The notes: generated from the letters alone by a model not told the origin. Counted from the stretch's first letter, positions 45,538 to 48,704 are shown. The stretch is 64,000 bases of DNA from a virus (IMGVR_UViG_3300046674_000373:32166-96165); one strand, 5' to 3'. Made by a program: numbers and translations.

Positions 45538-46404
45538 GTGGCAATCATGACCAAACCCATTTTCGAACTCGATTCGCCCAATTCATTCATCGGTACCGCC
45601 CACGTTCAAGTCCAGACGGTCGCAGATATCACCGGAGAGAATGAAATCCTTCTCCAAAATGAACATGCATTCGCGGTGTCCCAAGGTACCGGCGCTACAG
45701 TCCCAACGTCATTGAATGAGGGCCGTGCCCACGATATCGAATGGGCGCCGAAGACCATCGGTTACCTGCCTCCGGCATTCAGGGTTCGCAGCCTGTACCG
45801 TCAACCCATTCGCGCCACGTTCGTGCGCATTTCGGACGCAGTCTTTCGGGCAGCTGCGCTTGGTGTCGTTGACTTCGAGCAGGTTGACTCGCAGTTCCTG
45901 CATGGCATTACGGACCCAGTCGCGTTCAACCTGATGGAAGCCCTTTCATGGGCTGCGAGCGGCGGCAGTGACACATCCGAAATGATGCTCGAGTCGATTG
46001 GCATTGCTCTGTCCGTACGGATGATGCAAAAGCTCGGCGCCGTCATGCTGGAGAAAGTCGCGCCGTACTCCAGCGGCCTGCCTATTAACACGATGCGAAG
46101 GATCACCGAGTACATCGACGACAATATCGCTAATACGATTCGGCTCAAGGAGCTGGCCGGGATCGCTGACCTCAGCCCGTTTCATTTTGCAAGGGCGTTT
46201 CACAAAACGGCAAAAATCACTCCGGCCCGCTACATTGTGCTGCGCCGCGTCGAGTGCGCGAAACAGCGAATGCGAATTCCGTACGCGCAACTAGCGATCA
46301 TCGCATACGAGTGCGGCTTCGCCAGCCAGAGCCATTTCACGACCGCATTCAAGCGGGTCACCGGCATGACCCCGGCCGCCTACCGGGGACAGTTCATGAC
46401 TTGA
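45538..46404 (+). CDS. AraC-family transcriptional regulator (moron)
   Basis: LKELAGIADLSPFHFARAF...IAYECGFASQSHFTTAFKRVTGMTPAAYR. Confidence 0.9.
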   Translation: MAIMTKPIFELDSPNSFIGTAHVQVQTVADITGENEILLQNEHAFAVSQGTGATVPTSLNEGRAHDIEWAPKTIGYLPPAFRVRSLYRQPIRATFVRISDAVFRAAALGVVDFEQVDSQFLHGITDPVAFNLMEALSWAASGGSDTSEMMLESIGIALSVRMMQKLGAVMLEKVAPYSSGLPINTMRRITEYIDDNIANTIRLKELAGIADLSPFHFARAFHKTAKITPARYIVLRRVECAKQRMRIPYAQLAIIAYECGFASQSHFTTAFKRVTGMTPAAYRGQFMT

Positions 46405-47539
46405 GGGCAGCCTTCAGCCAGGAGGCGAACGCTGGATCATCGCCGGGCGCGGCGGCGTCGCCAACGACCACCCAGCGCCCGCGGCAATGCGGATGAGCCA
46501 GCCCAGCGGGCAGCCACCACATCTCATCCGGCGCGCGCGCCACCAGCACGTCGCCGACGCGCTTCTTGGGCGAGGCCGAGCGGCCGATGTTGGTCTTGCC
46601 GACCCATATCTCGGTCTCGCCGTCCTTGTCCGGCTTACCCGGATCGACGACTGTCGCGATCACGCCGTCGATGCGTTTGCAGAAGTTACAGGCGCTCGCG
46701 TATTGCTCGACGCGCTTGACCTTGGTGCCGAACGGCAGACTGGCGATCAGGCCCATGGTCTGCGCCTCGCCCGCCTCGGTGACCGCGATGCGGCGCCAGT
46801 CGCGGTTCAGGGTGCCGAATTGATCGAGGAGCTTGGTCTGGAGCGACGAGCCCGGCGCGCCGTCGAGCTGCTGCTCCAGGTGCTGCAGCACGGTCCCCTT
46901 CATCCGGTGCCGCACGTCTTCGGAGAGCGCACGCACGTTCTCGGCGCAGCGCACGCGCGCAAATTGCATCACGGCCTGCTCCAGCGGATTGAGGGCGAAC
47001 TGTTGCGCCGCGGCGGTCGCCGTGGACGGCAGCGCGGCCAGTATCAGATCGGCCTGGGCGACGCTGGCTGGCTTTGCCATGTGCGCCTGCACCTTGCCCA
47101 TCATCGCCGCGCGCGTGGACAGCCATTGCGCCTCGGCCACCAGCTCGTCGGCCGGAAGGTAGCGCTGCACCACCAGGTCAACGGCGAGCATGTGGTCGTC
47201 GATGGTCCACTGCGCCGGCGGCAGCGCCTCGAGGTAGATCCGCACCAGCTCGAGCTCGTCGGCCGACCAGCGGGTCATCATGCCCGGGTGCGCGACCGGC
47301 GCCGGCGAGGGCTTGTGCTTGTGGCCCAGCGTCCAGGCGGCGATCTCCTCCTGCACGCTGGCGAGGCGATCGAGGCCGCGCTGCGAGAACAGTTCGATCA
47401 GGCGCCGGATCAGGATCGACTCGTGCGGCAACCAGGCGCTGTCGCCGCCGTCGCCTGTGTGCGCCTTGTAGATGTGCTCAAGGGCGTTATCCGTGGCGCA
47501 GCAGGAGAGATGTTGGATATCGAGGAAGAGGCCGGTCAT
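46394..47539 (-). CDS. head morphogenesis protein (Mu F / SPP1 gp7-like)
   Basis: RDWRRIAVTE, ACNFC, AHPHCRGRW. Confidence 0.75.
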   Translation of the reverse strand: MTGLFLDIQHLSCCATDNALEHIYKAHTGDGGDSAWLPHESILIRRLIELFSQRGLDRLASVQEEIAAWTLGHKHKPSPAPVAHPGMMTRWSADELELVRIYLEALPPAQWTIDDHMLAVDLVVQRYLPADELVAEAQWLSTRAAMMGKVQAHMAKPASVAQADLILAALPSTATAAAQQFALNPLEQAVMQFARVRCAENVRALSEDVRHRMKGTVLQHLEQQLDGAPGSSLQTKLLDQFGTLNRDWRRIAVTEAGEAQTMGLIASLPFGTKVKRVEQYASACNFCKRIDGVIATVVDPGKPDKDGETEIWVGKTNIGRSASPKKRVGDVLVARAPDEMWWLPAGLAHPHCRGRWVVVGDAAAPGDDPAFASWLKAALKS

Positions 47540-47545
47540 GGGACG

Positions 47546-47561
47546 AGGGTAGGGTCACGAC
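47546..47561 (-). promoter_or_regulatory. late promoter motif
   Basis: GTCGTGAC-CC-TACCCT-N6-ATG. Confidence 0.75.
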
Positions 47562-47569
47562 GATAGACA

Positions 47570-47601
47570 GAGGCCCCACCGCATTGCTACGGCAGGGCCT
47601 C
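47570..47601 (-). terminator. strong hairpin closing the RNA moron
   Basis: GAGGCCCTGCCGTAG-CAA-TGCGGTGGGGCCTC on - strand; weak U-tract. Confidence 0.45.
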
Positions 47602-47786
47602 AGATGCTCCTCCCGCACGTGGCGGGCGAGACTGGTTTGCCCCCAGTCCTATCTGGAAAGTGGGGCTGGTTGTTGTGGTGCCAGGCGCAGAGCGTTGGCG
47701 ATCCTGTTGCGCGCCTGCGTTCGTCGTCGGCGCACACCACACGGCTGGCGACTGCGGCGGTCCCTTATACAACCCCGGTCAAACCC

Positions 47787-47864
47787 GGTGGAACAATCGC
47801 CATGCGTGTGGTGCCTGTCTTTCCAGGCTGTCAGGTAGTCGCCAGTCTCTTGAGATATCCCACC
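47787..47864 (-). ncRNA. candidate C4/CI-like antisense RNA
   Basis: Outer stem GGTGGGATA/TGTTCCACC encloses CTGGCGACT, hairpin GCCTG-GAAAGA-CAGGC and CACCACACG; both 9-mers are complementary to sites at 48155-48173 and 47735-47753. Confidence 0.5.
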
Positions 47865-47962
47865 CGCAAGGCCCGTACTGGCTTAGGCTCCCAGCGCTGC
47901 GCCAGCACTCTGGGAAATTGCCGTGGTTTTCACCACGAAGCGCGCAACATTCGTGTCTTCAG

Positions 47963-48124
47963 CTACCGCGCACGCTCACCCGCACGCGGATCATTATTGT
48001 ACAACATCTCCCACCCCAGCTGCCGCCTCACCTCTTCCGGCGACGGCGGCGGCGCAGCGCGCTCCTTCCGCTCGGCCATCCACTGCCTCACCTGCTCTTT
48101 GCTCGGGTGCGTCGTCGACGGCAT
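47963..48124 (-). CDS. 53-aa protein MPSTTHPSKEQVRQWM...
   Basis: SD CAGGAG; amphipathic helices. Confidence 0.65.
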   Translation of the reverse strand: MPSTTHPSKEQVRQWMAERKERAAPPPSPEEVRRQLGWEMLYNNDPRAGERAR

Positions 48125-48471
48125 GGCTGCTCCTGGTGGAACTGCAATCGGGTGCACCACACGACTGGCGACTTACTAGCAGGGAGTGGATGAAGGCTTT
48201 AGGGCTCCCATGAATCTGCCAGCCAGGAAGGATATACCTATGGCCCGCCCCTATACACCGCGTCACTGTGCCGGGAGTAAATCGACAGTCGTGTAGTGGC
48301 TCGTAACGTGAGCCAGTCGGCCGGTGACGCTCTCCGGCTGTGTCGCCGGCCACAACAGCCGGGCACTCGGTAAAACATCGGCGTTCGCATAAAGCAGCGT
48401 ACTTGATGGGAAACGGAGACAAAACACTCTGCCGAGCTAACCGACAGCCGCCGATTACTGCTGAGGTCTGA

Positions 48472-48501
48472 ATTTTACCGCAATAATAAAATTTTGCGCA
48501 A
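48472..48501 (-). promoter_or_regulatory. sigma70-type promoter
   Basis: TTGCGC-N18-TAAAAT in an AT-rich patch. Confidence 0.6.
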
Positions 48502-48704
48502 GTAATTTTGATTTTCCGCAACACCGTGGTCGCTGGCGGTCGATTGGCGCCGACCGCCAGCTCCACTCCACCATACGTTCTACGCCGATGCCGCCCTGGC
48601 GCTGGTGGGCCGTTATCCGACTGCCTACCGCCACTGGTTACCCAGCGCGGACCCCGGCCGGAGCGAGGCATGTGATACCGGCAGCTTAGCCCCTGCCGGA
48701 CCTG

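Follow-up and report, generated by a model that had tools for sequence, protein, structure and literature searches.

The c4 RNA of phage P1 is processed by RNase P. In the P1 record that we used for comparison (AF234172, 48255-48459, the immI region), a site a1 b1 is followed by c4, which carries b′ and then a′ and is closed by GGUGG/CCACC, and then by a site a2 b2, with b2 lying over the icd ribosome-binding site. The CI RNA of phage P4 (seqA/seqB/seqC) is processed from the transcript on which it acts, finds complements before and after itself, undergoes tRNA-like processing, and brings about premature termination of its own operon. Helices of ~20 bp with an internal loop also stand between functional RNAs in T7 early mRNAs and in rRNA operons, where they form RNase III stems.

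We analyzed a region that an earlier reading of the sequence, hereafter the original prediction, had described as a self-contained moron with a C4/CI-like antisense switch around a 53-aa ORF. The region lies in a stretch of 64,000 nt (the window; it spans 32166-96165 in a viral record of 96,165 bp that carries terminal repeats). The reading we prefer, to which we assign a probability of about 0.5, is that it holds two tandem copies of an uncatalogued phage RNA module, in which a long helix would serve as a processing or folding element and the ORF would be separate cargo.

Like P1/P7 C4, the locus has a promoter-proximal transcript with a bipartite site, its complement, and the site again. The closing strands are G/U-rich at the 5′ side and C/A-rich at the 3′ side in both cases (GGUGG/CCACC in c4 and GUGGUG/CACCAC in the module), both have a tRNA-like character, and in both the complementary segments vary jointly between phages. 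In contrast to the two antisense loops that C4 displays unpaired in an RNA of ~77 nt, the module’s complement is one contiguous strand within a local 19-bp helix, and the half-site that it complements also begins a tRNA-like domain at its 5′ end. Moreover, the sites leave ribosome-binding sites uncovered (20 nt separate the end of site 1 from AGGAG, and site 2 lies 195 nt 5′ of the next ATG), no icd or ant genes follow, and there is no covariance-model match. The Rfam models C4, c4-2, and c4-a1b1, which the original prediction had named as a check, and isrK gave no match in 47400-48700 even at E≤10 and none at the Rfam gathering score in the whole window. RF01695 found the positive control, P1 c4, at 68.8 bits and nothing at E≤10 in the 96-kb genome, and seven family loci likewise had no Rfam match. 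Among the testable C4 features, the window shows only the two target copies on one transcript (48173-48155 and 47753-47735). By its general description, P4 CI would resemble the locus in processing from its own transcript, flanking complements, and tRNA-like processing.

The locus and its two repeated units

Along the - strand, the features are as follows.

50752-49034, - strand: portal gene (Phage_portal), followed in order by a 110-aa gene, 1.1 kb, a 381-aa gene, and a gene for a 1510-aa SNF2-type helicase
48472-48501, - strand: candidate sigma-70 promoter (TTGCGC, 18 nt, TAAAAT)
48155-48314, - strand: unit A, with hairpin GGCTCACGTTACGAGCC (48314-48298), 5′ strand CACTACACGACTGTCGATT (48298-48280), a 106-nt interior, and site 1 as 3′ strand
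47963-48124, - strand: 53-aa ORF (stop codon included), with AGGAG 5 nt 5′ of the ATG and CCACCA (48139-48134) abutting the ribosome-binding site
47837-47845, - strand: a′ (CTGGCGACT), exactly complementary to the first half of either site, with the exact match to site 1 extending over 11 nt
47735-47828, - strand: unit B, a canonical module, with hairpin (47828-47813), 5′ strand CACCACACG-CA-TGGCGATT (47813-47795), a 41-nt interior, and site 2 as 3′ strand
47668-47743, - strand: degenerate tRNA-like tail of unit B, with 5′ strand CGTGTGGTG (47743-47735), internal hairpins, and a hairpin with CACCACA (47680-47674)
47639-47666, - strand: hairpin GCCCC/GGGGC with the invariant 18-nt loop ACTTTCCAGATAGGACTG, 3′ of unit B
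47570-47601, - strand: closing hairpin of 14 bp without a U-tract, from the predicted fold, 30 nt 5′ of the 381-aa gene

The 1.1 kb between the 110-aa and 381-aa genes contains no long credible ORFs. In loci L002-L004, found via the 381-aa protein, the 381-aa gene lies immediately 3′ of the portal gene, which marks the 1.1 kb of the window as an insert at a variable spot. The insert is absent at the 381-aa gene of relatives L002-L010, so these offer no RNA comparison. Mosaicism at the spot shows in L024, with an insertion of 172 nt, and in L169, where a module took the place of half the ORF. With blastn, the 1.1-kb region had no match in phage and plasmid collections, and among public sequencing runs, the window sequence occurred in a single DNA run (0.06 share of words) and in no RNA run. 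The absence of an antirepressor gene downstream, pointed out in the original prediction, is borne out by the next genes, those of the 381-aa protein and the SNF2-type helicase. The 381-aa protein (46394-47539, - strand) is conserved at 39-65% identity in at least nine viral contigs, where its gene lies immediately 3′ of the portal region, and no Pfam or PHROG family was found for it. Between its gene and the 1510-aa helicase gene, on the opposite strand, sits an AraC-family regulator gene (HTH_18; 45538-46404, + strand), which looks like a separate moron.

The 1.1-kb gap is an RNA island. It would be transcribed together with the late genes, probably starting at the promoter of 48501-48472. 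This predicted promoter sequence is present, and it went unlisted in a consensus scan because only three of six positions of its -35 element match. Ahead of its own unit, L032 carries a similar promoter, TTGCGC-18 nt-GATAAT, followed by the same TCAG as in the window. In the promoter region 5′ of its unit A copy, L024 (2569-2612, + strand) has a perfect 13-bp inverted repeat, TTGAGCAGGCTGG/CCAGCCTGCTCAA, a candidate repressor operator that is absent from the window. At the other end, the closing hairpin is again predicted, and a canonical terminator occupies the same place in L024, L032, and L126, 5′ of a shared GTCGTGACC and just before the conserved start of the 381-aa gene. The fold of 47560-47880 is much better than that of shuffled sequences (z = -5.2).

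The two 19-nt sites of the original prediction are real. Site 1 (48173-48155) and site 2 (47753-47735) on the - strand both read exactly AGTCGCCAG-N-CGTGTGGTG, and the chance expectation for such a site was zero in 100 shuffles. The half-site complements that it described are also there: CTGGCGACT (47845-47837, a′) and CACCACACG (47813-47805, b′) are exact and flank the hairpin GCCTG-GAAAGA-CAGGC (47828-47813). Between the two sites, the + strand carries a third copy of the site with two mismatches (47795-47813); CACCACACG thus continues as CA-TGGCGATT, forming one 19-nt strand for site 2. The resulting segment, 47813-47795, pairs contiguously with site 2 at -36.4 kcal/mol. The predicted pairing of the leader with site 1 is likewise present, over 23 nt at 87% (48298-48276; duplex energy of -34.9 kcal/mol). 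Since this leader segment plays the equivalent part for site 1, the region consists of two repeats of hairpin, 5′ strand, interior, and 3′ strand. The sites are therefore the 3′ strands of long helices; the 5′ strands are the 22-nt leader segment in one case and, in the other, b′ together with the 10 nt that follow it. In the predicted fold of the whole 926-nt transcript, both sites are paired with these local upstream partners. The cloverleaf proposed around a′ and b′ did not hold up: its GGTGGGA/TTCCACC closing stem is missing from the minimum-energy fold and from relatives that share the hairpin, and the 91-nt element on its own folds no better than shuffles (z = -0.2).

Unit A shares 83% identity with L024 2656-2797, where the changes within the helix compensate each other; it leads straight into CCACCA-GGAG and the ORF and has no tRNA-like tail. 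Unit B is 95% identical over 40 nt to L129, L136, and L137. At the variable NN pairs, unit B has GC/GC, and unit A has TC against GC, which makes one U.G pair. The tail of unit B retains GUGUGGUG and the hairpin with CACCACA but lacks the GGCUGA/GAUCAGC loops; folded alone, it pairs GUGUGGUG with CACCACA. Because unit A is tail-less and the tail of unit B is degenerate, this forward pairing may not operate in the window phage. The hairpin with the ACTTTCCAGATAGGACTG loop, 3′ of unit B, was seen in 12 viral contigs, mostly adjoining tRNA genes or immediately 3′ of a promoter. Its 5-bp stem covaries and is 96% paired, and the hairpin is not in Rfam.

The module family and its tRNA-like domain

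We scanned public viral and genome collections with the pattern AGTC-NN-CAG-N-CGTGTGGTG, which matched 54 viral and 111 genome loci. Nearly all viral matches had a partner strand no more than 300 nt upstream that paired at 16-19 of 19 positions. The genome matches were mostly chance-like, with a pairing peak at 13-14 of 19, and about nine of them, from Burkholderiales and other beta-proteobacteria, had a partner strand (in Methylotenera, Rhodocyclaceae, Telluria, Ramlibacter, Burkholderiaceae, and Alcaligenaceae). We thus recovered ~40 distinct module copies from uncultured viral contigs and Burkholderiales-type genomes. Each has a small hairpin directly 5′ of CACCACACG-CA-TG-NN-GATT, which pairs with AGTC-NN-CAG-N-CGTGTGGTG 50-125 nt downstream. 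The helix has 19 bp and a 2x2 internal loop and encloses a variable interior; interiors are unrelated between copies.

Aligned, 38 copies gave 96.9% pairing in the helix. Changes at two of its pairs are fully compensatory (CG 22, GC 11, AU 4 and UA 17, CG 16, GC 3, UG 2), the U.G wobble is kept in 35 of the 38 copies, and all five pairs of the preceding small hairpin covary; none of 500 shuffles reached the observed covariation values. The choice of members is partly circular, in that the site pattern was fixed, partner strands were filtered for at least 16 pairs, and CACCAC was picked by pattern. Evidence unaffected by this circularity comes from the NN covariation, the wobble, the hairpins, and the helix-free copies. 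A covariance model built from the alignment (R1) scored unit B (47708-47844) at 68.7 bits and unit A (48133-48322) at 66 bits on the - strand vs. 36.9 and 22.3 bits on the + strand, in line with the strand originally predicted. In the 96-kb genome, R1 found exactly two copies, both in the window. Together, the compensatory NN pairs, the conserved U.G pair, and the strand scores of R1 argue for a strand-specific RNA structure, and by this comparative evidence, the module is a structured RNA. The covariation that the original prediction had looked to exists for the sites and their complementary strands, whose compensatory changes show them to be under selection; a′ is lacking in 39 other family members.

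With blastn, the canonical form of the module had no match among the 50,697 records of the GenBank phage collection, and no Rfam 15 family matched. Modules lie within phage tRNA arrays, always in the orientation of the tRNA strand (L134, L126, L177, and L184), or beside integrase genes (L137); in L126, the CCA end of a tRNA-Tyr is the beginning of the module’s 5′ strand. We found no conserved protein neighbor, and no neighbor was common to more than three loci. In this position beside tRNA arrays, on the tRNA strand and with no conserved protein partner, the module resembles the small stable RNAs of phage tRNA operons; what sets it apart is a leader helix of 19 bp, nearly invariant, as a competitor for the acceptor strand. 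It also resembles RNase III stems, which likewise lie shortly before genes and reuse a similar sequence at several sites. However, 17 of the 19 helix positions are nearly invariant across unrelated phages, a sequence conservation far above what RNase III needs. In L143, L170, L186, and the window (48318-48312), the small hairpin has a 5′ half (GACTGGCG or GGCTGGCG) that complements CGCCAG[TC]C of the site as well and changes with the site’s middle base, and it may provide a third competing pairing.

Most sites are trailed by a hairpin-adjacent CACCACA, and the final 8-9 nt of the site serve most members as the 5′ acceptor-like strand of a tRNA-shaped domain. The usual order after the site is AAT, the hairpin GCGCA-GGCTGA-TGCGC, a variable part, GCCGG-GATCAGCG-CCGGC, CACCACA, and often ACC. 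Canonical stretches folded alone give a four-arm cloverleaf in which GUGUGGUG pairs with CACCACA, a fold that resembles tRNA-shaped phage RNAs in being cloverleaf-like without a decoding anticodon arm. Pairing in the acceptor-like stem reaches 96.6%; one double change there turns G-C into A-U, nine further changes are wobble changes, and A-to-G changes in CACCAC preserve wobble pairs. In tRNA, the D- and T-loops touch. The D-like and T-like hairpin loops of the module are complementary (GCUGAU/AUCAGC), with a mean of 4.8 nt vs. 2.6 nt in shuffles and pairing of 85.7%. True T-loops (GGTTCGAnTCC) occur in L169, L186, L171, and L129. Three copies, L154 (7370-7492), L179, and L188, have the tRNA-like domain without the leader helix, and in one of them, a double change to AUGGUG/CACCAU keeps the pair. 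ARAGORN and the Rfam tRNA and tmRNA models found no tRNA or tmRNA in the window, and ARAGORN and the Rfam tRNA model did not call the modules of other loci.

Because the last 8-9 nt of the site double as the acceptor-like strand, GUGUGGUG has two rival partners: it pairs either backward, closing the long helix, or forward, forming the tRNA-like domain. An alternative pairing between half-site and CACCACA had been noted for site 2 in the original prediction and is a conserved feature of the family. In several canonical members (L155, L178, L145, L156, and L164), CACCACA is followed 3′ by AACCTGTCTCCTCC, a hairpin, ACTTCGCCGCC, and an intrinsic terminator; a CUCCUCC run in this stretch resembles the anti-Shine-Dalgarno sequence.

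The small ORF and the extra complement

The 53-aa ORF was predicted correctly. It has three close homologs at the protein level and more than 100 tblastn relatives with the pattern HPSK..VR..PPPSPEEIRRQLGW, each with its own Shine-Dalgarno sequence and ATG. The number of relatives, the conserved pattern, and the separate start signals argue that the ORF is a real gene, and on this comparative basis, it is a genuine and widespread small-protein gene. Pfam, NCBIfam, and PHROGs contain no family for the protein, and the ESM Atlas gave no informative neighbor. It belongs to a large unnamed family with PPP[ST]PEEIRRQLGW (L046-L125), whose invariant PPP could make translation EF-P dependent. The product is hydrophilic, charged, and proline-rich and has no hydrophobic stretch, which speaks against the type I toxin-antitoxin-like output that had been suggested.

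Phages and bacterial contigs of megabase size both carry homologs of the ORF, which appear in many chromosomal contexts lacking the RNA. We scanned the surroundings of two bacterial copies: one (L078) lies just upstream of genes for LiaF-like membrane proteins and a LytS-type histidine kinase, and the other (L051) has a TonB-dependent receptor upstream and a LytS-type kinase ~1.7 kb downstream. The ORF follows the module in the window phage, L024, and L126. In L032, it is upstream of the promoter and unit, and in L169, only its 3′ half is left behind a module. Because its position varies in this way, the ORF is linked to the island without being enclosed by a switch, and the description of the locus as a self-contained moron around the ORF does not fit the relatives. 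In L169 (1308-1500, + strand), the module has a true T-arm and is followed by only the C-terminal half of the small ORF (PPP..REEVRRQLGWAMI), which suggests that the RNA cassette displaced the 5′ half of the ORF and thus that the cassette moves.

The extra complement a′ is absent from 39 other family members and confined to close relatives of the window phage. L024 and L032 each carry, downstream, a 12-nt exact complement (ACTGGGATGGCT and CGGCTGGCAGCT, respectively) of their own, differing site. The place of the extra complement relative to the ORF and the terminator differs among these three phages. Since the complements in L024 and L032 are unlikely to have arisen by chance, a long-range alternative pairing in the clade of the window phage is possible, and a′ may provide it there. 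The duplex energy of a′ alone is -17 to -23 kcal/mol vs. -35 to -36 kcal/mol for the local strands. In the window, a′ looks like a remnant of a small hairpin of the kind whose 5′ half also complements the site. An exact scan of viral contigs for CTGGCGACT-N15-40-CACCACACG returned 13 matches, all due to chance and none with a nearby site.

Proposed function and alternatives

In the processing reading that we prefer, the tRNA-like domain would have its 5′ end masked by the long helix, and the pieces would come apart through cleavage that is double-strand-specific, of the RNase P type, or both. In the window, the small-ORF message would be trimmed from a longer transcript, with unit A 30 nt 5′ of the ATG and unit B behind the ORF, and the small ORF would be a separate cargo of a mosaic locus. 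This reading leaves both the near-invariance of 17 of 19 helix positions and a′ unexplained.

In an antisense switch of the C4/CI type, an RNA from 47864-47787, or a released hairpin plus the CACCACACG 5′ part, would pair through a′ and b′ with the sites and control the small ORF or the downstream genes. The site-complement-site topology matches that of P1, with a1b1 upstream and a2b2 downstream of a c4 carrying b′ and a′; the complements are exact over 9+9 nt, or 11 nt for site 1; the window phage, L024, and L032 each have an extra complement that varies in step with the site, each at an estimated chance of ~1 in 1,000; and the tRNA-like features are compatible with RNase P processing. To this extent, the logic of the original prediction survives. 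However, the local helices are preferred, with b′ locked in one of -36 kcal/mol and a′ alone reaching only -17 to -23 kcal/mol. In addition, the sites overlap no ribosome-binding site, Rfam has no C4-type match, and the family shows no display of a′, hairpin, and b′, since a′ is missing in 39 members. Nor does the ORF keep a constant place relative to the unit. Among the matches listed, there was also no trans target of at least 14 nt elsewhere in the 96-kb genome. A C4-style switch is thus possible in the window, yet it is not the best reading, and we consider it unlikely. The two units could instead be decaying remnants, truncated or degenerate cassette copies left by recombination at a mosaic hot spot and without present function in the window phage. 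The missing tRNA-like domain of unit A, the degenerate one of unit B, the lack of any insert in L002-L004, and the mosaic locus (the L024 insertion of 172 nt and the half ORF of L169) all fit such decay, but the intact helices of both units (66-69 bits), the 83% conservation of unit A with L024 with its compensating helix changes, and the z score of -5.2 for the region make it quite unlikely.

A role as a read-through leader for the 381-aa and 1510-aa helicase genes appears improbable. The site’s alternative pairings, with the upstream strand or with a′ or CACCACA, would then decide whether the closing hairpin or terminator forms. The canonical terminator at the island end in L024, L032, and L126, just 5′ of the start of the 381-aa gene, points in this direction, as does the position of a′ in L032, ~70 nt 5′ of the terminator; a promoter with a long structured leader also resembles the late-gene leaders of phages in general. 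Yet the window hairpin has no U-tract, no pairing joins the site to the terminator stem, and most members stand in tRNA arrays or beside integrase genes with unrelated genes downstream. We regard an element acting at the level of DNA, such as the terminal inverted repeats of a small mobile element (MITE) or protein-binding or recombination sites, as highly improbable. A 19-bp imperfect inverted repeat around a variable interior, with a patchy distribution and no conserved neighbor, would be expected of it, and joint change of both arms is also expected at transposon ends. In DNA, however, the U.G position would be a fixed mismatch, and neither the constant orientation with adjacent tRNA genes nor the conserved hairpins outside the repeats on both sides, around interiors unrelated between copies, is accounted for; no recombinase or transposase is linked.

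More speculatively, the modules may form a new class of tRNA-shaped phage RNA with a leader lock. The near-invariant helix and the tRNA-like fold would compete for GUGUGGUG, RNase P and RNase III of the host would release either a tRNA mimic or a hairpin RNA whose CACCACACG seed is free, and in the clade of the window phage, a′ would turn this into a C4-like switch on the small-protein transcript.

The locus illustrates that patterns of site, complement, and site can be the strands of local helices in repeated modules and not antisense targets. Phage tRNA islands are usually read as tRNA genes and spacers; a well-supported RNA family that is absent from Rfam 15 sits there. If its two folds are alternative states, the module would offer a compact, naturally occurring case of a leader helix that controls how an RNA matures, and it would extend the small set of tRNA-scaffolded phage regulators represented by c4 and CI.
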